Shown in pieces: positions 2,496-62,717 of a stretch of 64,000 nucleotides of DNA. The first letter of the stretch is position 1; every line of letters starts with the position of its first letter. The stretch comes from Anaerolineaceae bacterium (GTDB lineage Bacteria; Chloroflexota; Anaerolineae; Anaerolineales; Anaerolineaceae), in NCBI GenBank assembly GCA_040772945.1, contig JAXGXE010000001.1, positions 1,012,862 to 1,076,861 on the forward strand, written 5' to 3'. Made by a program: the position numbers and the translations under genes. The notes beneath the pieces were generated by a model that saw only the letters and a program-made list of their open reading frames with translations, did not search any database and was not told the DNA's origin.

Positions 2496-3432
2496 TTAAA
2501 ACCTCGGTACTGTTTTCTTGCTGGCGAATAATGTAAGTGGGTTGACCAAATGTTTTTGAGAATAGTCTGCCTAAATATTCACCAATCATGCCAATTGCGA
2601 ACAACTGTACCCCTGAAAAAATAGCGACAATTGAGGCAAGGAAAGTAAATCCAGGAACAACTCCACCACTCCGAAAAAACTTAACAAATACATAAATCAA
2701 TACCGCGATTCCAAAAAGTATCGATCCAAAGCCTAAAAAACTCGAAAACTGGAGAGGTAAAATGCTAAAACCCGTAATTAGAGTTAATGCATGGTTCAAA
2801 AGCTTCTTTAAGGTATATTGCGACTTCCCTGATAATCTAAGGTTATGTTTGGTTTTTACTGAGGCGAAATGTGTTGTTCCCCAGGATAAAAGTACATCAA
2901 TTGACACGAAAGTACCTTTGTATTCAGCGAAAGAATCCCGTAATTGTGTATGGAATGCCCTGTAAGCTGATATTTCCTGGGCTTTAGAAACCTGCATAGC
3001 TTTTTTGAGGATTAATTTAATAAGTTTTGAAGTGATATTACGCCATAAGCTGTGTTTTTCTTCTTGGGGAACGCTGTAAACAACATCATATCCTTGTTGA
3101 AGCTTTTCCAAGAGCTGAGGAATTGTCTCTGGAGGATGTTGCAAATCATCATCCAGAGTGATAATAATCTCACCCGATGCCTTTCTGATACCACAGAGGA
3201 GGGCGTTGTGTTGTCCAAAGTTACGAACAAGATCAAAAGCGCGAATGTTTGGGTATTTGCTTGATAAATCTTTGATTGTTTGCCAACTTTTGTCATGGCT
3301 GCCATCATTCACTAAAATAATTTCATAAGGATTTGACAGGGTTGAAAGGACAGTTGTTAAGCTTTGGATGAGAGGAGGCAGGTTATCCTGGCTATTATAA
3401 ATAGGGATTACAATTGAAAGTTTCTTGTTCAT
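2485..3432 (-). CDS. Family-2 glycosyltransferase, polyprenyl-phosphate sugar synthase type (ArnC/GtrB/DPM1-like)
   Basis: GT-A motifs SIVIPIYNS, VNDGSHD and LDDDLQHPPE, plus two C-terminal transmembrane helices. A GAGG Shine-Dalgarno precedes the ATG. Confidence 0.85.
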   Translation of the reverse strand: MNKKLSIVIPIYNSQDNLPPLIQSLTTVLSTLSNPYEIILVNDGSHDKSWQTIKDLSSKYPNIRAFDLVRNFGQHNALLCGIRKASGEIIITLDDDLQHPPETIPQLLEKLQQGYDVVYSVPQEEKHSLWRNITSKLIKLILKKAMQVSKAQEISAYRAFHTQLRDSFAEYKGTFVSIDVLLSWGTTHFASVKTKHNLRLSGKSQYTLKKLLNHALTLITGFSILPLQFSSFLGFGSILFGIAVLIYVFVKFFRSGGVVPGFTFLASIVAIFSGVQLFAIGMIGEYLGRLFSKTFGQPTYIIRQQENSTEVLNDN

Positions 3433-5627: not shown

Positions 5628-7025
5628 TGTCAAGGCTAAATAGAAATGTCCTATTGCTGGCAAGTTAGAAATGTCCTAATTGATTATCATTGTTGTCAAA
5701 ATGGGTTTTCCATTTAGCTTCTTTCCATAGGTTCTCCATGGGTGATTGTAAGCTGGTGGTTCTGGTTTTGCCTTGGGAGCAGCACTTGCTGTTATCTGAC
5801 TCTGTTTGGGTCTTTTTTCAATTTCTTCCAGTTCTAAGGCATTCCCATCTAACCAAGCAGTAATCTCACCATTACTGTCTTGAGTAACCAGTACTTCCCG
5901 TTTTTGAAAGTTATATACTGGGCGTTGGGTTTTGATTTGATAAATTTTGCCATCATAGTGAACCTGTAGTGTTTTCGTGATAATCCGAAAGTCATGTACA
6001 GAAAACAAAAAGTCCAGATCCTCGGTTTCATCCAGTGGGCGATGACGGTCAAAACTTTCAATCGGTTTTATAGCAAATCTTCGGTTATAGTCTGCAATGA
6101 ACTCTGGTAAGTATGCGTTTGCCGCGTCATAATTATCAATGCCAAGCAAACGCATTTCTTTGATTAAGCGGTCTTGCAGTGTTCCGTTACATCTCTCTAC
6201 CCTGCCTTTTGCTTCCGGAGAATAGGCATACGTTATTTCAATATCCAAGACCGACAATGCCCTTTGAAACTGGGTAACACTCTCTTCTCCTGTCTTTTTA
6301 GGTCTGGGACTGCGAAATACACTAAACCGGTCACAATAAAAGCCTACCGGTAATCCCCAGGTTCTAAAATAGCTTTTGCATAACTTGCCATAGCTAAAGA
6401 AACTTTCTTCCGTCGCAAATTCTGCTGCCAGTATTTCACTGGTGGCATCATCGACAAATACCAACAGCGTTGCCTTTGGCCCACGTTCCTCCAGCCAGGC
6501 GTGTTCTGAACCGTCAATTTGCACCAGTTCTCCACGACAAACACGTCGTGGGCGGGCAGAATGGATCTTTTCTCTTTTCTTGCTTTTTGCTTTCCATACA
6601 CCGCATACTATCATCTCTTTTCGCACGGTTTCTTTGCTTAGTTTGATGCCTTCTATTTCTTCCAGCTTTTCTGCCATAAAGGTTGGCCCAAAGCCTTTTA
6701 CTATTGGGTCACAGATGAATTCCCTGACCTTCTTCAGCGTCTCTTCATCCGTTTTTCGGTTACTGCTTCGGCCTCGTTTTCTGGACACCAAACCTGCATC
6801 GCCTTCCTGGCGATAACGTTTCAAAATCCGCCTGAAGTGACGTTCTGTTATATGTAGCTTTTCAGCCGCTTCTTTTTGTGTCATGCGTTTGTCCATTACA
6901 CGGTCTATAACCGTTTTTCGGATTAGTTCTTTTGTGCTCATTTCTAATGTTCTGTTCATAGCTCCTAATCTTAATTAGGACATTTCTACTTTGCTACTTT
7001 AGGACATTATCACTTTGCTCTGACA
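5628..7025 (-). mobile_element. ISNCY/IS1202-like insertion sequence, copy 1 (1398 bp)
   Basis: Imperfect terminal inverted repeats of about 53 bp: TGTCAAGGCTAAATAGAAATGTCCTA.. versus the reverse complement of the other end, TGTCAGAGCAAAGTGATAATGTCCTA... One 427-aa transposase ORF. Identical to copy 2, exactly 3600 bp downstream. Confidence 0.85.
5676..6959 (-). CDS. ISNCY (IS1202 group)-type DDE transposase
   Basis: 427 aa. The N-terminal HTH (KELIRKTVIDRVMDKRMTQKEAAEKLHITERHFRRILKRYRQEGDAGLVSRKRGRSSNRK) is typical of ISNCY transposases as I recall them. An rve-like DDE core follows. Confidence 0.75.
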   Translation of the reverse strand: MNRTLEMSTKELIRKTVIDRVMDKRMTQKEAAEKLHITERHFRRILKRYRQEGDAGLVSRKRGRSSNRKTDEETLKKVREFICDPIVKGFGPTFMAEKLEEIEGIKLSKETVRKEMIVCGVWKAKSKKREKIHSARPRRVCRGELVQIDGSEHAWLEERGPKATLLVFVDDATSEILAAEFATEESFFSYGKLCKSYFRTWGLPVGFYCDRFSVFRSPRPKKTGEESVTQFQRALSVLDIEITYAYSPEAKGRVERCNGTLQDRLIKEMRLLGIDNYDAANAYLPEFIADYNRRFAIKPIESFDRHRPLDETEDLDFLFSVHDFRIITKTLQVHYDGKIYQIKTQRPVYNFQKREVLVTQDSNGEITAWLDGNALELEEIEKRPKQSQITASAAPKAKPEPPAYNHPWRTYGKKLNGKPILTTMIIN

Positions 7026-7038
7026 CAATTCTTCCAAA

Positions 7039-8104
7039 TGTAGGATTGTCAAACATGTTGGACAGTCTGAGATAAAAATTGAATAGGTGATAAGAACTTC
7101 AATGGTCGCATCGGTATATGGTTACTGCGCTGGTTGTGTCTTCTCAGTTGTCTTTTGAAATCCTCAAATGAATAGAATGTTGATTTGTTATAGAAACGTT
7201 TTTGATCCTCCTTATGGCTTCTCTCTACTTTCCCATTGTGTCTGGGCGTGTAGGGTCTGATTAGTTTATGCTTTATTCCTTTATCGCGTAAGACAGCCTC
7301 AAACAAACTTAGATTATCCTCGTCTTTCGTTCTAAGAAAGCGTTTGGTGAATTCAAAGCCATTATCGGTCTGCACACATTCAACCTCAATCTCTCTGCTC
7401 TTGAACCAGGCAATGGCGTGTTCGATAAAAACAGCCGAGGAAAAAGTATCTGCTGTCTGAAAACCTTCCAGGTATCTCAAACGACTAAACTCATCAATAG
7501 CGGTGTATTGATAGTAGCGTTCCCAGTTTTCATCAACAATACACGCTTTAGGAACGACTTTTACGTCTACTTGTATTCTTTGCCCAGGATATTGCATCTG
7601 TTCATAGGCTTGTGCTTTGTATGGTTTCTTTTTGTTCTTCTTTTGTCTAAGCAGCCCTTCCCGTCGTAAAACCCTAAATAGGCTGACATAATGGCGACGA
7701 TAACCTTGTTTTCTGAGTTTGAACCAAAGTTCATATAAACCCAGGTCTTTATTTCGTTTGTGATAGCGACGGATCAAGGCTATCTCTTCCGGACTGTGTT
7801 GATTTGGGTGATGTTTGGGTCTTCTTGACCGACAGGCTAAGGATCTAATATCCCCATCATAGCGTTTGAGCCAAAAGTAAATATAGCTGCGACATCTGTT
7901 ATATTTCCTGGACGCTTTAGTTACTCCATGATTGAGGGCATATTTGACCAAAGAATGTCGATATTTCATGTCTTGTGTTATCTTATCCATAGCAGGTTGT
8001 GGTTTCTCCTTTTTGTTTTGTTTGTGCGCAATAACAATAACGGATACTTCCATTTCCTGCTATTCTTTTTTCATACACTGTCCAATATGTAGTGTAATCC
8101 TACA
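7039..8104 (-). mobile_element. IS481-family-like insertion sequence, copy A (1066 bp)
   Basis: The terminal inverted repeats TGTAGGATTGTCAAACATGTTGGACAGT and TGTAGGATTACACTACATATTGGACAGT (reverse complement of the far end) match at about 23 of 30 positions. One transposase ORF. Confidence 0.85.
7049..8053 (-). CDS. IS481-family DDE (integrase-core) transposase
   Basis: 334-aa ORF with an HTH followed by an rve-type core (QVDVK.., YTAIDEFSR, VQTDNGFEF, RPYTPRHNGKVERSH). The real start may be MDKITQDM at 7990. Confidence 0.8.
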   Translation of the reverse strand: MEVSVIVIAHKQNKKEKPQPAMDKITQDMKYRHSLVKYALNHGVTKASRKYNRCRSYIYFWLKRYDGDIRSLACRSRRPKHHPNQHSPEEIALIRRYHKRNKDLGLYELWFKLRKQGYRRHYVSLFRVLRREGLLRQKKNKKKPYKAQAYEQMQYPGQRIQVDVKVVPKACIVDENWERYYQYTAIDEFSRLRYLEGFQTADTFSSAVFIEHAIAWFKSREIEVECVQTDNGFEFTKRFLRTKDEDNLSLFEAVLRDKGIKHKLIRPYTPRHNGKVERSHKEDQKRFYNKSTFYSFEDFKRQLRRHNQRSNHIPMRPLKFLSPIQFLSQTVQHV

Positions 8105-8130
8105 TTTTTACAATCCTGTCAGAGCAAAGT
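8105..8130. repeat. 26-bp junction scar between IS481-like copies A and B
   Basis: The sequence is TTTTTACAATCCTGTCAGAGCAAAGT. Positions 8117-8130 are the reverse complement of the last 14 nt of the ISNCY-like element (ACTTTGCTCTGACA). Positions 8109-8117 are the reverse complement of AGGATTGTA, which matches the inner part of the IS481-like left inverted repeat. Confidence 0.8.
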
Positions 8131-9196
8131 TGTAGGATTGTCAAACATGTTGGACAGTCTGAGATAAAAATTGAATAGGTGATAAGAACTTCAATGGTCG
8201 CATCGGTATATGGTTACTGCGCTGGTTGTGTCTTCTCAGTTGTCTTTTGAAATCCTCAAATGAATAGAATGTTGATTTGTTATAGAAACGTTTTTGATCC
8301 TCCTTATGGCTTCTCTCTACTTTCCCATTGTGTCTGGGCGTGTAGGGTCTGATTAGTTTATGCTTTATTCCTTTATCGCGTAAGACAGCCTCAAACAAAC
8401 TTAGATTATCCTCGTCTTTCGTTCTAAGAAAGCGTTTGGTGAATTCAAAGCCATTATCGGTCTGCACACATTCAACCTCAATCTCTCTGCTCTTGAACCA
8501 GGCAATGGCGTGTTCGATAAAAACAGCCGAGGAAAAAGTATCTGCTGTCTGAAAACCTTCCAGGTATCTCAAACGACTAAACTCATCAATAGCGGTGTAT
8601 TGATAGTAGCGTTCCCAGTTTTCATCAACAATACACGCTTTAGGAACGACTTTTACGTCTACTTGTATTCTTTGCCCAGGATATTGCATCTGTTCATAGG
8701 CTTGTGCTTTGTATGGTTTCTTTTTGTTCTTCTTTTGTCTAAGCAGCCCTTCCCGTCGTAAAACCCTAAATAGGCTGACATAATGGCGACGATAACCTTG
8801 TTTTCTGAGTTTGAACCAAAGTTCATATAAACCCAGGTCTTTATTTCGTTTGTGATAGCGACGGATCAAGGCTATCTCTTCCGGACTGTGTTGATTTGGG
8901 TGATGTTTGGGTCTTCTTGACCGACAGGCTAAGGATCTAATATCCCCATCATAGCGTTTGAGCCAAAAGTAAATATAGCTGCGACATCTGTTATATTTCC
9001 TGGACGCTTTAGTTACTCCATGATTGAGGGCATATTTGACCAAAGAATGTCGATATTTCATGTCTTGTGTTATCTTATCCATAGCAGGTTGTGGTTTCTC
9101 CTTTTTGTTTTGTTTGTGCGCAATAACAATAACGGATACTTCCATTTCCTGCTATTCTTTTTTCATACACTGTCCAATATGTAGTGTAATCCTACA
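8131..9196 (-). mobile_element. IS481-family-like insertion sequence, copy B (1066 bp, identical to A)
   Basis: Same ends and the same ORF as copy A, displaced by 1092 bp. Confidence 0.85.
8141..9145 (-). CDS. IS481-family DDE transposase (identical to 7049-8053)
   Basis: The 334-aa translation is identical in the ORF track. Confidence 0.8.
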   Translation of the reverse strand: MEVSVIVIAHKQNKKEKPQPAMDKITQDMKYRHSLVKYALNHGVTKASRKYNRCRSYIYFWLKRYDGDIRSLACRSRRPKHHPNQHSPEEIALIRRYHKRNKDLGLYELWFKLRKQGYRRHYVSLFRVLRREGLLRQKKNKKKPYKAQAYEQMQYPGQRIQVDVKVVPKACIVDENWERYYQYTAIDEFSRLRYLEGFQTADTFSSAVFIEHAIAWFKSREIEVECVQTDNGFEFTKRFLRTKDEDNLSLFEAVLRDKGIKHKLIRPYTPRHNGKVERSHKEDQKRFYNKSTFYSFEDFKRQLRRHNQRSNHIPMRPLKFLSPIQFLSQTVQHV

Positions 9197-9227: not shown

Positions 9228-10625
9228 TGTCAAGGCTAAATAGAAATGTCCTATTGCTGGCAAGTTAGAAATGTCCTAATTGATTATCATTGTTGTCAAA
9301 ATGGGTTTTCCATTTAGCTTCTTTCCATAGGTTCTCCATGGGTGATTGTAAGCTGGTGGTTCTGGTTTTGCCTTGGGAGCAGCACTTGCTGTTATCTGAC
9401 TCTGTTTGGGTCTTTTTTCAATTTCTTCCAGTTCTAAGGCATTCCCATCTAACCAAGCAGTAATCTCACCATTACTGTCTTGAGTAACCAGTACTTCCCG
9501 TTTTTGAAAGTTATATACTGGGCGTTGGGTTTTGATTTGATAAATTTTGCCATCATAGTGAACCTGTAGTGTTTTCGTGATAATCCGAAAGTCATGTACA
9601 GAAAACAAAAAGTCCAGATCCTCGGTTTCATCCAGTGGGCGATGACGGTCAAAACTTTCAATCGGTTTTATAGCAAATCTTCGGTTATAGTCTGCAATGA
9701 ACTCTGGTAAGTATGCGTTTGCCGCGTCATAATTATCAATGCCAAGCAAACGCATTTCTTTGATTAAGCGGTCTTGCAGTGTTCCGTTACATCTCTCTAC
9801 CCTGCCTTTTGCTTCCGGAGAATAGGCATACGTTATTTCAATATCCAAGACCGACAATGCCCTTTGAAACTGGGTAACACTCTCTTCTCCTGTCTTTTTA
9901 GGTCTGGGACTGCGAAATACACTAAACCGGTCACAATAAAAGCCTACCGGTAATCCCCAGGTTCTAAAATAGCTTTTGCATAACTTGCCATAGCTAAAGA
10001 AACTTTCTTCCGTCGCAAATTCTGCTGCCAGTATTTCACTGGTGGCATCATCGACAAATACCAACAGCGTTGCCTTTGGCCCACGTTCCTCCAGCCAGGC
10101 GTGTTCTGAACCGTCAATTTGCACCAGTTCTCCACGACAAACACGTCGTGGGCGGGCAGAATGGATCTTTTCTCTTTTCTTGCTTTTTGCTTTCCATACA
10201 CCGCATACTATCATCTCTTTTCGCACGGTTTCTTTGCTTAGTTTGATGCCTTCTATTTCTTCCAGCTTTTCTGCCATAAAGGTTGGCCCAAAGCCTTTTA
10301 CTATTGGGTCACAGATGAATTCCCTGACCTTCTTCAGCGTCTCTTCATCCGTTTTTCGGTTACTGCTTCGGCCTCGTTTTCTGGACACCAAACCTGCATC
10401 GCCTTCCTGGCGATAACGTTTCAAAATCCGCCTGAAGTGACGTTCTGTTATATGTAGCTTTTCAGCCGCTTCTTTTTGTGTCATGCGTTTGTCCATTACA
10501 CGGTCTATAACCGTTTTTCGGATTAGTTCTTTTGTGCTCATTTCTAATGTTCTGTTCATAGCTCCTAATCTTAATTAGGACATTTCTACTTTGCTACTTT
10601 AGGACATTATCACTTTGCTCTGACA
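9228..10625 (-). mobile_element. ISNCY/IS1202-like insertion sequence, copy 2 (identical to copy 1)
   Basis: Same termini as copy 1. It is flanked on both sides by CAAAGAAAATGAGCTT (9212-9227 and 10626-10641), a 16-bp target-site-duplication-like repeat. Confidence 0.85.
9276..10559 (-). CDS. ISNCY (IS1202 group)-type DDE transposase (identical to 5676-6959)
   Basis: The 427-aa translation is identical. Confidence 0.75.
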   Translation of the reverse strand: MNRTLEMSTKELIRKTVIDRVMDKRMTQKEAAEKLHITERHFRRILKRYRQEGDAGLVSRKRGRSSNRKTDEETLKKVREFICDPIVKGFGPTFMAEKLEEIEGIKLSKETVRKEMIVCGVWKAKSKKREKIHSARPRRVCRGELVQIDGSEHAWLEERGPKATLLVFVDDATSEILAAEFATEESFFSYGKLCKSYFRTWGLPVGFYCDRFSVFRSPRPKKTGEESVTQFQRALSVLDIEITYAYSPEAKGRVERCNGTLQDRLIKEMRLLGIDNYDAANAYLPEFIADYNRRFAIKPIESFDRHRPLDETEDLDFLFSVHDFRIITKTLQVHYDGKIYQIKTQRPVYNFQKREVLVTQDSNGEITAWLDGNALELEEIEKRPKQSQITASAAPKAKPEPPAYNHPWRTYGKKLNGKPILTTMIIN

Positions 10626-10641
10626 CAAAGAAAATGAGCTT
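10626..10641. repeat. 16-bp direct repeat CAAAGAAAATGAGCTT (copy 3)
   Basis: It directly follows the right end of ISNCY-like copy 2. Confidence 0.9.
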
Positions 10642-10684: not shown

Positions 10685-10757
10685 GGTGCCTGTAGCTCAA
10701 TGGCAGAGCGCTTCACTGTGGCTGAAGATGTTGTGGGTTCGAGTCCCATCAGGCACC
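10685..10757 (+). tRNA. tRNA-His (anticodon GTG) with encoded G-1
   Basis: Hand-folded cloverleaf. Acceptor GTGCCTG/CAGGCAC with an extra 5' G opposite C73. D arm GCTC-AATGGCA-GAGC. Anticodon arm CTTCA-CTGTGGC-TGAAG. T arm GTGGG-TTCGAGT-CCCAT. CCA is not fully encoded. Confidence 0.9.
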
Positions 10758-10765
10758 CAGCTAAC

Positions 10766-10789
10766 CCCCGATTTTTTTCGGGGTTTTTT
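10766..10789 (+). terminator. Rho-independent terminator after tRNA-His
   Basis: Hairpin CCCCGA-TTTTT-TCGGGG followed by a T6 run. Confidence 0.75.
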
Positions 10790-10862
10790 GTTTATATTTC
10801 CAAGGCTAACGCCTTGGGTCTTAGGCGCACGGTCAGGAGACCGGCGCGGAGCGGATAAGGTT

Positions 10863-10933
10863 GGCTGAAGATCTTGTGGGTTCGAGTCCCATCAGGTACC
10901 CAGCTAAGCCCCGATTTGTTTTCAGGGTTTTTG
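10863..10933 (+). pseudogene. Degenerate duplicate of the tRNA-His 3' half plus its terminator
   Basis: GGCTGAAGATCTTGTGGGTTCGAGTCCCATCAGGTACCCAGCTAAGCCCCGATTTGTTTTCAGGGTTTTTG aligns with 10721-10790 with a few substitutions. There is no matching 5' half upstream. Confidence 0.8.
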
Positions 10934-11045
10934 TTTGTTTTGCAAGGTTTTTCGCATGGGAGCTCTGCACTTGTTCAGGATATATGCACGGTGCAGGCAA
11001 GGTTGACAGAAGATATTATTGAATCCTCAATTTTGTGTAAAATAT

Positions 11046-48695: not shown

Positions 48696-48756
48696 GACTG
48701 ATGAGCTGATCAGGAGATACTCCGGTTCTTTGTTTTAAGCTAATTTATTTGTAAAA

Positions 48757-48781
48757 CCTGTTTACATGTGCCACAAAAAAC
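48757..48781. repeat. 25-bp direct repeat flanking IS481-like copy C (left)
   Basis: CCTGTTTACATGTGCCACAAAAAAC matches 51812-51836 (CCTGTTTACATGTGCCACACAAAAC) at 24 of 25 positions. Confidence 0.85.
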
Positions 48782-48791
48782 TGTAGGATTG

Positions 48792-49733
48792 TCAAACATG
48801 TTGGACAGTCTGAGATAAAAATTGAATAGGTGATAAGAACTTCAATGGTCGCATCGGTATATGGTTACTGCGCTGGTTGTGTCTTCTCAGTTGTCTTTTG
48901 AAATCCTCAAATGAATAGAATGTTGATTTGTTATAGAAACGTTTTTGATCCTCCTTATGGCTTCTCTCTACTTTCCCATTGTGTCTGGGCGTGTAGGGTC
49001 TGATTAGTTTATGCTTTATTCCTTTATCGCGTAAGACAGCCTCAAACAAACTTAGATTATCCTCGTCTTTCGTTCTAAGAAAGCGTTTGGTGAATTCAAA
49101 GCCATTATCGGTCTGCACACATTCAACCTCAATCTCTCTGCTCTTGAACCAGGCAATGGCGTGTTCGATAAAAACAGCCGAGGAAAAAGTATCTGCTGTC
49201 TGAAAACCTTCCAGGTATCTCAAACGACTAAACTCATCAATAGCGGTGTATTGATAGTAGCGTTCCCAGTTTTCATCAACAATACACGCTTTAGGAACGA
49301 CTTTTACGTCTACTTGTATTCTTTGCCCAGGATATTGCATCTGTTCATAGGCTTGTGCTTTGTATGGTTTCTTTTTGTTCTTCTTTTGTCTAAGCAGCCC
49401 TTCCCGTCGTAAAACCCTAAATAGGCTGACATAATGGCGACGATAACCTTGTTTTCTGAGTTTGAACCAAAGTTCATATAAACCCAGGTCTTTATTTCGT
49501 TTGTGATAGCGACGGATCAAGGCTATCTCTTCCGGACTGTGTTGATTTGGGTGATGTTTGGGTCTTCTTGACCGACAGGCTAAGGATCTAATATCCCCAT
49601 CATAGCGTTTGAGCCAAAAGTAAATATAGCTGCGACATCTGTTATATTTCCTGGACGCTTTAGTTACTCCATGATTGAGGGCATATTTGACCAAAGAATG
49701 TCGATATTTCATGTCTTGTGTTATCTTATCCAT
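48792..49733 (-). CDS. IS481-family DDE transposase (copy C; upstream region severed by the insertion)
   Basis: 313 aa, identical to copies A and B from MDKITQDM onward. The 21-codon N-terminal extension seen in A and B is cut off by the insertion at 49769/49770. Confidence 0.75.
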   Translation of the reverse strand: MDKITQDMKYRHSLVKYALNHGVTKASRKYNRCRSYIYFWLKRYDGDIRSLACRSRRPKHHPNQHSPEEIALIRRYHKRNKDLGLYELWFKLRKQGYRRHYVSLFRVLRREGLLRQKKNKKKPYKAQAYEQMQYPGQRIQVDVKVVPKACIVDENWERYYQYTAIDEFSRLRYLEGFQTADTFSSAVFIEHAIAWFKSREIEVECVQTDNGFEFTKRFLRTKDEDNLSLFEAVLRDKGIKHKLIRPYTPRHNGKVERSHKEDQKRFYNKSTFYSFEDFKRQLRRHNQRSNHIPMRPLKFLSPIQFLSQTVQHV

Positions 49734-49745
49734 AGCAGGTTGTGG

Positions 49746-49769
49746 TTTCTCCTTTTTGTTTTGTTTGTG
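49746..49769. repeat. 24-bp direct repeat TTTCTCCTTTTTGTTTTGTTTGTG (left) bounding the insertion
   Basis: Present once in copies A and B (for example 8003-8026) and twice here (49746-49769 and 51710-51733). Confidence 0.9.
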
Positions 49770-49920
49770 TAGGGTATTTTGAGGATATAAACATCGGTGT
49801 AAATGATAATGAAGTAAGCAAGTCGGGGAAGGGTCACGGCTAAGCGTTCGCGTCGCTTCGCTTTGCTACGCGCCACAAACGCAAAGCCTAACCCTTGCCC
49901 CGAACCCCATCCCGATAAGT

Positions 49921-49948
49921 AAATAGCGCGCCATTCGGCGCGCTATTT
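49921..49948 (-). terminator. Hairpin downstream of the 70-aa ORF
   Basis: AAATAGCGCGCC-ATTC-GGCGCGCTATTT. The 18-nt core GCGCGCCATTCGGCGCGC recurs at 51264-51281. Confidence 0.5.
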
Positions 49949-49972
49949 ACATGGAACTTTCTAACTCTAACA

Positions 49973-50185
49973 CTAATCAAAAGAAGGATTAGCAACAAAT
50001 GCTATGAGATCTAAAACCTCCTTTCTATGGTAAAGCCACCTGTTTATATAATAGTAAACTTGGCGCTCACTTACTCCCAGCCTCCCGGCAATATCCTCTA
50101 CACATTTGCCCTTTTGCCAATACGTGCCGGCTAAAGCCACCTTTTGCGCCACAATAAACTTATTACTCCCTTTGGTTTTTGACAT
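49973..50185 (-). CDS. Small helix-turn-helix protein (unknown family)
   Basis: About 70 aa from MSKTKG. The HTH-like segment is CVEDIAGRLGVSERQVYYYINRW. The track ORF extends to 50212. Confidence 0.5.
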   Translation of the reverse strand: MSKTKGSNKFIVAQKVALAGTYWQKGKCVEDIAGRLGVSERQVYYYINRWLYHRKEVLDLIAFVANPSFD

Positions 50186-50438
50186 CCTGCCAAATCTTAC
50201 CCGCGTTTGCAATCCCGATAACTTTACTAAGGTTATTAAAGCTCAATAAATCCAAACATTCCAATATATCAGCGAACAAATAATGTAAATCAAACTTCGT
50301 TCTAACCCCGTCCAAACAATTCACATTATTAGCAGTCTTAATATCCCTATAAAGCTCGCCAAATCTCGCCAAAACCCGCTCATGATCCAAGCGGTGCACT
50401 TCCTCTCTACCGAACTCTACAACCCAATTCCTATCCAT
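50163..50438 (-). CDS. Hypothetical 91-aa protein
   Basis: MDRNWVVEFGREEV.. is preceded by a strong AAGGAGG Shine-Dalgarno. It overlaps the downstream HTH ORF by about 23 nt. I recognise no family. Confidence 0.5.
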   Translation of the reverse strand: MDRNWVVEFGREEVHRLDHERVLARFGELYRDIKTANNVNCLDGVRTKFDLHYLFADILECLDLLSFNNLSKVIGIANAGKIWQDVKNQRE

Positions 50439-50539
50439 ACATCCTCCTTGGCTTCCATGCAATAAACTGCAATATCAACACCAATTATAGAACACCTTTT
50501 CTAATTTGTCATTATGAAACGCTCAAACTCAATAGCCCA

Positions 50540-51700
50540 ATCCAACATTCTGCGCACGCTTTCGCCTTGGCTGTTCGCTTTACGGTGTAAAAGCAACACC
50601 GATGACGCTCACATGCCAAGGCTAACCGTTCTTGCTGTTAGCCAGCTCTCATTAGTCCCATCCAACATTCGGCGCATTCTCACCGTTCTGCCGGCTCGCC
50701 AGTCTCACTACACCACCCGCCAACGTTTGGCGCATGCTCCGTTTTGGCGCGTCGCTCCGCGGGTAAAAGCGTTCCCGATGTCGCTCCCGCGCCAAAACTC
50801 GCGCTTCCACTTGTCAACACCAAACGCACCTGAACCCCGCGCACTTCTCGCTATCACAATCGCCTGTGCTCAGGCTTGGTGTCGCTTCGCTCGCCAGCCT
50901 TCGCAACGCACTCCGCACTAAACTTAGTCCTTACCCGCGCGTTTTTTTAACGCTCCGCTAATCGTTCCGGCTTCGCTAAAAACGCGCTCCGTTTGTTCGC
51001 TTCGTGCGTGGTTGCCCCCTTCCCCCCAGCTCCCCCCGAACCCCCCTTCCAACCCCCCACACCCCACAAATGTCTCATTCAATCGGGGGGAAACTTGGGG
51101 GGATATATGGGTCAACTTCAGCCTCTCTCGCTTCGCTCGTTCGCACTGAGCCTATTTTTAAGTAGGCTTTTCGGGCTTCCGTCGGCTTCGCCATCTTCAG
51201 CCCTCCAAGCCACTATCCCCGCGAGGCTCGGCAAGCCTCCGCGGGATGGTTTTCTCATAAGGTGCGCGCCATTCGGCGCGCAATCATATACACGCCTTCG
51301 CTATTCGCTCAGGCGCGCCTTCATAAGGTGTTGCCTCGCGTACGCTCGGCAACGTTATAGAATGCCTGCCTTCGCTGTTCGCTCAGGCAGGCTCTTAGCT
51401 AAGGTGTTGCCCTCGCTGTTCGCTCGGGCAACGTTCCGCATTGCCAGCAAAGCCGGCAATGCTCAATAGTTTCGCCTCTTTTCACCTCCCCCTGCAGTGC
51501 CCTCAGTTCGTTCGCTTTGTTGCGAACTCAAAAGCCTTCGGGCACTGCGCCTCACCCCGCAAGAAAAAGCAGAGGTACGCGCGGTTGCCCGCTTCGCGGG
51601 CTTGCGCGGGACTTCGCCCGCGCGGTGGCTAATGCGCCAGCCCCAGCGCGCTACGCGCGCGGGCAGGCGCTAAACGCCACCAACCGCGCTAAGACCTCTG
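50540..51700. repeat. Array of at least 12 GC-rich imperfect palindromes (REP/BIME-like) with conserved loops and variable stems
   Basis: Examples: 51364-51392 GCCTGCC-TTCGCTGTTCGCTCA-GGCAGGC; 51406-51432 GTTGCCC-TCGCTGTTCGCTC-GGGCAAC; 51330-51353 GTTGCC-TCGCGTACGCTC-GGCAAC; 51438-51462 GCATTGCC-N9-GGCAATGC; 51494-51548 GCAGTGCCC..GGGCACTGC; 50564-50622 and 50741-50798 are paralogous 60-nt hairpins. Confidence 0.8.
51015..51102. repeat. Homopolymer C-run cluster followed by two G6 runs (G-quadruplex/i-motif-capable)
   Basis: Runs C5, C6, C6, C6, C6 and C4 lie between 51015 and 51065. G6 runs are at 51085-51090 and 51097-51102. Confidence 0.8.
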
Positions 51701-51709
51701 TTTTTCTTT

Positions 51710-51733
51710 TTTCTCCTTTTTGTTTTGTTTGTG
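51710..51733. repeat. 24-bp direct repeat (right) bounding the insertion
   Basis: Identical to 49746-49769. Confidence 0.9.
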
Positions 51734-51811
51734 CGCAATAACAATAACGGATACTTCCATTTCCTGCTATTCTTTTTTCATACACTGTCCAATATGTAGT
51801 GTAATCCTACA

Positions 51812-51836
51812 CCTGTTTACATGTGCCACACAAAAC
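51812..51836. repeat. 25-bp direct repeat flanking IS481-like copy C (right)
   Basis: Matches 48757-48781 at 24 of 25 positions. Confidence 0.85.
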
Positions 51837-62646: not shown

Positions 62647-62717
62647 GCACGTGGCAGGAGACTTAATATCACTCGCCCCGGCGTCTCGCCGCGGGCACAA
62701 CCACGTTCGCTGAGGTA
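62647..62717 (+). repeat. REP-like GC-rich repeat unit R1 with GTTCGCTGAGG tail
   Basis: GCACGTGGCAGGAGAC..CTCGCCCCGGCGTCTCGCCGCGGGCACAACCACGTTCGCTGAGGT. Related to units R2, R3 and R4. Confidence 0.75.

Follow-up and report, generated by a model that had tools for sequence, protein, structure and literature searches.

A family of about 2-kb mobile elements in Anaerolineae with long direct repeats, a structured non-coding module and no recognisable mobility enzyme

The stretch of DNA analyzed here (hereafter the window) comprises 64,000 nucleotides of contig JAXGXE010000001.1 from an Anaerolineaceae bacterium (GenBank assembly GCA_040772945.1, positions 1,012,862 to 1,076,861) and contains a 1940-bp insert that interrupts one copy of an IS481-like insertion sequence (IS) and is bounded by a 24-bp direct repeat. 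As judged from sequence comparison with public assemblies, this insert is a copy of a coherent, restricted family of mobile elements, ~1.9-2.3 kb in size, found in Anaerolineae (Chloroflexota). Comparison of the copies shows that the element inserts at unrelated sites, apparently duplicating 22-27 bp of the target, and that it keeps a G-rich, hairpin-dense non-coding module along with two small genes of predicted DNA-binding type. The element also exists as a circle or a head-to-tail tandem made up of the element and one copy of the duplication.

Insertion sites and circular forms of the element

The host IS is ~1066 bp long and is represented in the window by three copies. Copies A (~7040-8104) and B (8131-9196) are uninterrupted, and copy C aligns with them over 48782-49769 and then again over 51710-51812, with the insert between the two parts. 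The 24-mer at the break, TTTCTCCTTTTTGTTTTGTTTGTG, is present in exactly four copies in the window (at 8003, 9095, 49746 and 51710; shuffled sequences yield an expectation of 0), being single in copies A and B and doubled around the insert in copy C, as described in the original prediction, which was made from the letters of the window alone. The transposase of the IS is IS481-like (NCBIfam IS481, E = 1.5e-56, below the curated cut-off; Pfam domains rve and rve_3), and copy C itself is flanked by a 25/26-bp repeat with one mismatch (48756-48781 and 51811-51836), in agreement with the ~25-bp duplication proposed for it earlier. The insert has a GC content of 56-66% over 50600-51700, compared to ~42% in the surroundings, and its plus strand is strongly skewed towards C over G. 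An inverted pair involving both termini was not found, as likewise had been anticipated, nor were terminal inverted repeats matching a parent IS.

Both junctions are reproduced in L001, a 14.9-kb contig of the metagenome-assembled genome (MAG) GCA_040769705.1 at NCBI, and in L012, a Logan contig; all assemblies used in this work are short-read assemblies. In contigs L060 and L062, which come from other samples, the IS is uninterrupted and contains one 24-mer beside the same ffh-side flank, so that these contigs represent empty sites. An explanation that does without mobility, with the insert being an assembly chimera or ordinary chromosomal DNA between IS halves, is excluded by the identical junctions in independent assemblies together with the uninterrupted IS copies, carrying one 24-mer, in the window and elsewhere; it is further contradicted by the occurrence of the element in additional loci and genomes and in circular form. 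No observation speaks in its favor, and its probability is accordingly negligible. The junction artefact against which the original prediction had cautioned thus did not materialize.

The search for other copies with their flanks, proposed at the same time, was productive. In contigs L002-L009 and L045, an element 93-95% identical to that of the window and possessing the same two ends is located at a different locus, which adjoins a protein kinase/FGE-sulfatase gene and the reverse transcriptase (RT), 3 kb away, of a diversity-generating retroelement (DGR) with bAvd. There, the element lies between copies of CGC(G/T)GGCAAAAACGCATGGCAAGGAT, which match exactly over 22 bp, or over 26 bp if a single mismatch is allowed. 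L010, L011 and L016 contain a copy, 99.4-99.8% identical, whose 3' flank (CCAATAGAGCGCCACTTGCAAACC) is a third one, and in L001 the entire composite of IS and insert resides at another genomic site, with its own IS-flanking repeat. Contig L046 consists of the element alone. A metagenome scan with the pattern of the 3' end added only two short contigs. The direct repeats (Table 1) are unrelated in sequence between sites, and two of them are chromosomal terminator-like hairpins. The 24-mer had been proposed to be either a long target duplication or the core of an attachment (att) site. For the window type, a fixed att core is ruled out by the different repeats found around almost identical elements whose ends are the same, and target-site duplication is the best reading of the direct repeats.

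Two Logan contigs of 1994 bp, L013 and L014, have 30-bp terminal overlaps and are circular permutations of a 1964-bp sequence that consists of the element and exactly one 24-mer; L015 and L017 span the same junction. This circle junction is the commonest configuration, found in 15 of the 24 contigs read for exact ORF2, a count that includes similar places listed for these contigs. A second lineage (L037, 2163 bp, and L038, 2105 bp) and a third (L069, 2342 bp) likewise assemble as circles. Empty sites and circle junctions, which the original prediction had suggested looking for, are therefore both represented, and the copies with other flanks, together with the circle-junction contigs, support its description of a non-autonomous mobile element of a kind that could not be classified.

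Several observations concern individual sites. L011 starts with the IS-derived 24-mer on the 5' side despite its third 3' flank; this could be either an old duplication carried to the new site or the result of a rearrangement or an assembly path. The L002 site is located amid several repeats of 150-450 bp that are 87-97% identical (314-568, 2549-3241 and 7373-8369) and resemble template/variable repeats; one of them shares 89% identity with 46 nt of the window (62653-62697). In L048 (~1245-1840), an IS200-type TnpA gene unrelated to the element is inserted 20 nt before the element 3' end, and in L033, L035 and L036 (~1340-2560), an IS3-family element has inserted after ORF2 of the P0016 type.

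Structured non-coding module and two small genes

All conserved features of the element lie on the minus strand of the window (Table 1). The 5' terminal hairpin, in which an A-run pairs with a T-run, for this reason looks like a bidirectional terminator; a homologous long hairpin is found at the equivalent position in the P0016 and P0011 lineages, and in L002 a compensatory change (CCCGCGAAGCGGG to TCCGCGAAGCGGA) is observed. Next to it lies a conserved module, of which the window contains a single copy, with box1 GGGGTGAGGC and box2 AGGGGGAGG. The P1 stem of this module is closed in each lineage folded independently, and its pairs covary (GCAGUGCCC/GGGCACUGC, UUGUGCCC/GGGCACAA, GCGGUGCC/GGCACCGC, UCGGUGC/GCACCGA and GCGGGC/GCCCGC), the covariation being read from the separate folds of each lineage rather than from a structural alignment. 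The cluster of C-runs and G-runs that follows the hairpin array consists, in 7/7 lineages, of two C-runs and then 4-6 G-runs of 5-9 nucleotides, situated 400-700 nt from the 5' end. With further hairpins between this cluster and the promoter, the G-rich hairpins extend over ~1.2 kb overall. The promoter core GTGTTCTATAAT is kept in the P0015, P0016 and P0011 lineages; the 14-bp hairpin after ORF2 is probably the terminator of the operon and is followed by a ~150-nt tail up to the element 3' end.

Table 1. Features of the element and its host IS in the window, and direct repeats at the insertion sites
Feature	Position or site	Strand	Length, basis or remark
Left direct repeat	49746..49769	.	24 bp; putative target duplication; follows element 3' end in element orientation
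Right direct repeat	51710..51733	.	24 bp; putative target duplication; precedes element 5' end in element orientation
Mobile element	49770..51709	-	1940 bp; minus strand 5'-AAAGAAAAACAGAGG...AAAATACCCTA-3'
Host IS481-like copy C, part with transposase gene (48792-49733)	48782..49745	-	Match to A/B; NCBIfam
Host IS481-like copy C, severed upstream end including terminal inverted repeat	51734..51811	-	Match to A/B
5' terminal branched hairpin domain	51560..51709	-	~150 nt; fold; A-run pairs with T-run
Conserved module: box1 GGRGTGWGGC, closed stem P1 with inner hairpin, box2 AGGGGGAG	51486..51558	-	One per element, in every lineage
Array of four hairpins with different stems and common tip GAGCG(A/U)A(C/U)(A)GCGA(G/A), alternating with ACCUUA	51290..51435	-	Fold; repeat family D10
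Two C6 runs, then five G5-6 runs (GGGGTGTGGGGGGTTGGAAGGGGGGTTCGGGGGGAGCTGGGGGGAAGGGGG)	51015..51102	-	Cluster kept in 7/7 lineages
Near-consensus sigma-70-type promoter ATGACA-17-TATAAT	50484..50512	-	11/12 matches; ~45 nt upstream of ORF1
ORF1	50163..50438	-	91 aa; conserved small protein
ORF2	49973..50185	-	70 aa; HTH_23; overlaps ORF1 end
Perfect hairpin GTAAATAGCGCGCC/GGCGCGCTATTTAC just after ORF2	49919..49950	-	14 bp; inverted-pair scan (pair I5)
Direct repeat	Window (in IS)		24 bp
Direct repeat	L002		22-26 bp
Direct repeat	L028/L044		27 bp
Direct repeat	L042		23 bp
Direct repeat	P0011 type (L052 5' flank = L055/L056 3' flank)		25 bp
Direct repeat	L041		16 bp exact, with degenerate extension

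The GC-rich part is non-coding: its open reading frames (ORFs) have no match in Pfam, and indels between close variants (24, 2, 1, 23, 1, 57 and 1 nt) break every frame. Its predicted folding energy is -559 kcal/mol on the minus strand vs -472 kcal/mol on the plus strand, and the hairpin motifs CGAAG and AGCGAA are fully strand-specific (11:0). Most of the hairpins are capped by C(GNA)G triloops, the commonest being C(GTA)G (n = 8) and C(GAA)G (n = 6). Triloops of the GNA type are typical of highly stable mini-hairpins made of DNA and not of RNA, which hints at a single-stranded DNA stage. A GC-rich block of 1-1.4 kb is located upstream of ORF1, on the same strand, across lineages; the positions of the hairpins stay while their sequences are replaced, and the non-coding DNA diverges too fast for blastn to align anything but ORF1 between lineages. 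Among the close variants of the window type, the non-coding part is almost invariant, which made RNAalifold uninformative, and it is ~99% conserved where ORF1 is only 82-84% identical; this contrast suggests a mosaic that might have arisen via recombination. No match to Rfam 15 was obtained for the window at gathering thresholds, and a permissive Rfam search (E <= 10) of the insert region and five other lineages yielded only chance-level miRNA-like hits to the C/G hairpin.

Within the near-invariant non-coding DNA of the window-type variants, a hypervariable patch of ~40 nt is located at ~50826-50865 (columns 846-885 of alignment A3). The idea that this variable cassette specifies the target in the manner of a guide RNA was ruled out by L045, which combines the insertion site of L002 with the cassette of L048. 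Three repeats of the form GCGCC(N)AA(N)GTTGG(A/C), or GCGCC-N-AATGTTGG, lie on the minus strand just upstream of the ORF1 promoter (50530-50735) and could be operator sites for the helix-turn-helix (HTH) proteins. Their core, ATGTTGGA, is also found within the inverted repeats of the IS481-like element.

The original prediction that the insert encodes no transposase, integrase or RT and holds only a 91-aa ORF, a ~70-aa HTH ORF and GC-rich hairpins was confirmed by profile scans: comparison of ORF1 and ORF2 with Pfam, NCBIfam, PHROGs and PADLOC detected generic HTH similarity only and no transposase, integrase, RT or replication initiator (Rep). ORF1 has no known family or fold, and its C-terminal FNNLSKVIGIANAGRIW segment is invariant; the AlphaFold model has a predicted local distance difference test (pLDDT) score of 83.5, and neither a Foldseek search with this model against the PDB and BFVD nor a profile search against PDB sequences produced anything significant. 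ORF2, a generic HTH protein of 66-112 aa, is present in every lineage and overlaps the end of ORF1; its profile finds only generic HTH or homeodomain matches among PDB sequences.

The ORF1 family comprises 20 clusters at 90% identity, with identity between lineages going down to 56-60%, and a search of 1.8 billion representatives at 50% identity yielded only 15 proteins with E <= 0.001. All four hits in genomes belong to MAGs of Chloroflexota/Anaerolineaceae, and the exact ORF1 protein is present in 102 blocks of public assemblies, nearly all in contigs shorter than 10 kb. Samples that contain the element include SRR24902056 and SRR24902070. No relatives were found in viral contigs, in PLSDB (by DNA and protein) or in INPHARED. 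Distant relatives of ORF1 (P0021, 115 aa) occur in L064-L067 in a three-gene arrangement, in which an extra ORF of ~96 aa with a weak Acb5 hit is followed by the ORF1 relative and then by an ORF2-like HTH gene.

Possible mechanisms of movement

The reading preferred here, tentatively and at somewhat less than even confidence, is that of a family of mobile elements with a long target duplication that would be moved by an enzyme acting in trans, with the circle as an intermediate or an episome. The likeliest enzyme would be a long-duplication DDE transposase, for example that of an IS481-like or IS1202-family element residing in the same genomes. Among DDE transposases, long duplications have been described for the IS1202 subgroup (27-28 bp) and for ISTde1 (15-17 bp) (bioRxiv 10.1101/2022.12.17.520857). 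Candidate ISs of this type are present in the window itself, namely the ISNCY_2 IS, with a 16-bp duplication, and the IS481-like IS, with ~25 bp at copy C. Movement would follow a copy-out/paste-in route, of which the circle with its ends ~24 bp apart would be the intermediate; such a circle is the expectation for this route if the spacer equals the duplication length, as in IS3-type elements. The role of the two small HTH-type proteins would lie in regulation of the element or recruitment of the enzyme, and the G-rich structured module, as single-stranded DNA or RNA, would keep the circle alive, for instance by replication priming via an R-loop or a G-quadruplex. In the window, the element would have landed in the leader of IS copy C, splitting the transposase gene from the upstream IS end, and would now ride inside the IS.

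Several observations weigh against this reading. How a DDE transposase would recognize the element ends is unexplained, given that there are no inverted repeats and that, on direct reading, the ends show no resemblance to those of the IS481-like and ISNCY elements. DDE transposases usually give a fixed duplication length, and the length observed here varies (22-27 bp, with only 16 bp exact in L041). Contigs with the circle junction are more numerous than those with integrated junctions, which is too common for a transient intermediate and would fit a replicating episome better; moreover, each 'circle' is to be understood as a circle or a head-to-tail tandem because de Bruijn assembly cannot tell them apart, and in the P0016 circle the ends are joined with no obvious spacer. 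Longer degenerate repeats surround the element in L020, L041 and L028, and look like tandem remnants of neighboring copies or att-type similarity. Finally, the integrated P0015 copies are devoid of the 5' hairpin that is present in related circles, and no promoter was found for the G-rich module.

The lack of inverted repeats and of likeness to IS ends, the variable duplication length and the frequent circle junctions together make an integrative episome the main rival, although a rather unlikely one. In this case, the ~2-kb circle would be the normal state, a small plasmid-like or satellite replicon, and the direct repeats would be attL/attR cores. Replication would start from the G-rich region without a Rep of its own, by RNA or R-loop priming as in ColE1 or the mitochondrial conserved sequence block II (CSBII), or via single-stranded DNA with a helper, and integration would be occasional, through the short junction sequence, by a host or helper recombinase. 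Such an episome is consistent with the circles found in three lineages and dominating the contigs, with the cluster of G5-9 runs preceded by C-runs in all lineages, with the strand-specific hairpin motifs and the prevalence of C(GNA)G triloops, and with the degenerate 45-90-nt repeats around some copies, including integrated ones of the P0015/P0016 lineage. In addition, the range of 22-27 bp coincides with the minimal length for efficient RecA recombination. However, junctions and flanks differ completely between nearly identical elements (the 24-mer vs the 22-mer), which rules out a fixed attP core for the window type. Neither a Rep or integrase gene nor a palindromic site of the Xer type was detected, there is no match in collections of plasmids, phages or viral contigs, and the gain of a segment identical to each new target would be left without explanation unless it is picked up at excision.

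A retroposon-like route, in which an RNA copy would be reverse-transcribed and inserted at staggered nicks by an RT acting in trans, is improbable. It would account for the variation of the duplication length within 22-27 bp and, through 5' truncation, for the integrated P0015 copies without the hairpin of the related circles; the non-coding part resembles a structured RNA, and the L002 copy is located near the RT of the DGR. Against it, the element encodes no RT, a rough scan of the long ORFs of the window for the Y/F-x-DD motif typical of RTs was negative, and Rfam revealed neither a group II intron nor any other retroelement RNA. Both element ends are precise at two sites, and the duplicated target is present in the DNA circles, which would not be expected from cDNA insertion. 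Furthermore, a terminator-like hairpin stands at the start of the element, and the sole clear promoter is internal, upstream of ORF1, so that no one transcript would run through the entire element. Marginally less probable still is a nucleic-acid-driven DNA transposon and episome, in which the structured ~1.2 kb with its box1-P1-box2 module, G-run cluster and GNA-triloop hairpins, the two small HTH proteins and general host factors would direct or catalyze excision as a circle and staggered insertion, with no dedicated protein enzyme involved.

The consequences of the insertion for IS copy C, which had been predicted to be inactivated, are less clear. The insert, in the same orientation as the transposase gene, does separate the upstream IS end (51734-51811) from the transposase ATG at 49733, and copy C is plausibly silenced by the loss of its native upstream region. 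However, the 313-aa ORF, both IS ends and the AAGGAG within the duplicated 24-mer are intact, and inactivation is not established because copies A and B can supply transposase and the composite is found at a second site in L001. Given this second genomic site, either the composite has remained mobile or the 24-mer is targeted recurrently.

A number of observations were made on the ISs of the window. The flanking repeats of IS481-like copies are ~25 bp long and imperfect (48756-48781/51811-51836 in the window, 7180-7206/10246-10270 in L001, and also in L061): ~16-19 nt match, and the 6-10 nt beside one IS end differ. These repeats are unusually long for the IS481-like family, and their mismatched part may be donor flank that was carried over. 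Copies A and B form a head-to-tail pair (7040-9196) with a spacer of only 26 bp (8105-8130, TTTTTACAATCCTGTCAGAGCAAAGT), which includes the inverted 14-nt end of the neighboring ISNCY element; the same junction is present in another sample (L063). This second IS is represented by two identical copies (5628-7026 and 9228-10626) that encode a 427-aa transposase (5676-6959 in the first copy; NCBIfam ISNCY_2, 3.8e-124), bracket the A/B pair and adjoin the tRNA-His gene. It has the ends TGTCAAGG.../...CTCTGACA, and its copy 2 is flanked by 16 duplicated bp, CAAAGAAAATGAGCTT, resembling in this respect the ISTde1 subgroup of the IS1202 family. Downstream of the tRNA-His gene (10686-10758), the 3' part of the gene and the hairpin behind it are repeated over 115 nt at 77% identity (10703-10817 vs 10846-10960), which is reminiscent of an att-type duplication that an integrative element has left behind.

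Relation to known elements and implications

Comparison with the known classes of mobile DNA indicates that the family is apparently undescribed, as the defining features of none of the families considered are present; keyword searches of the literature revealed no comparable element. The ISs of the IS1202 family and other long-duplication DDE ISs generate very long target duplications of similar size and co-reside with the element in the window. In contrast to these ISs, the element contains neither an IS1202-type transposase (~400-470 aa, ISNCY_2), which is found here in a separate IS, nor 24-26-bp inverted repeats; it has a duplication at every well-defined site, with a length of 22-26, 23, 24, 25 or 27 bp; and two-thirds of it consist of the structured non-coding module. 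With miniature inverted-repeat transposable elements (MITEs) and other IS deletion derivatives, the element shares the lack of its own enzyme, multiple copies, target duplications and broken metagenome assemblies. However, MITEs are shorter than ~0.6 kb, have the inverted repeats of their parent IS and contain no genes, whereas the element is ~2 kb long, has no inverted repeats and no identifiable parent, and keeps two genes and a promoter across lineages in which ORF1 is only 56-60% identical.

The circle intermediates of IS3, IS30 and IS256 are similar in that the ends are joined via short flanking DNA of about the duplication length. Their spacers are 2-6 bp as opposed to 24 bp in the element, in which, furthermore, the circle junction is the commonest configuration and no abutted inverted repeats are found. 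ColE1 RNA II and the mitochondrial CSBII resemble the element in combining a small circle that lacks a Rep gene with a long structured region and G-runs beside C-runs on one strand, but similarity in sequence or in Rfam is lacking, the structured region of the element has no identified promoter, and replication of the element is only putative. Integrative mobile elements exploiting Xer (IMEX) and integron cassettes are likewise small circles integrating between short direct repeats by means of an enzyme supplied in trans. Unlike in these systems, the repeats of the element vary by site, with no common core (the 24-mer in the IS is unrelated to the 22-26-mer in L002), and are neither dif-like nor attC-like palindromes, direct reading of the IS and L002 repeats having revealed no dyad symmetry of Xer/dif-like arms.

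The remaining classes are more distant. Profile scans detected no tyrosine or serine recombinase gene in the element. Group II introns and other retroelements are disfavored by the lack of an RT hit for any ORF of the element and of an Rfam intron hit even at E <= 10, together with the presence of a duplication; casposons, by the absence of a Cas1 gene and of terminal inverted repeats; and IS200/IS605 and IS91, by the absence of an HUH gene and the presence of a target duplication. A plasmid would be compatible with the circular form, but there is no Rep gene, and PLSDB contains no match at the DNA or protein level.

To our knowledge, the well-understood classes of bacterial mobile DNA all take their definition from an enzyme, be it a transposase, an integrase, an RT, a Rep or Cas1. 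The family described here has persisted and diversified across Anaerolineae without a recognizable mobility enzyme. If the element is a hitch-hiker, it would parasitize a transposase without the usual mimicry of inverted repeats; if the circle replicates, it would be a Rep-less mini-replicon with an origin of the G-quadruplex/R-loop type in bacteria; and if neither is the case, a new mechanism of mobility would be implied. Such elements fragment the metagenome assemblies of the abundant Chloroflexota of wastewater and digesters and can ride inside ISs.

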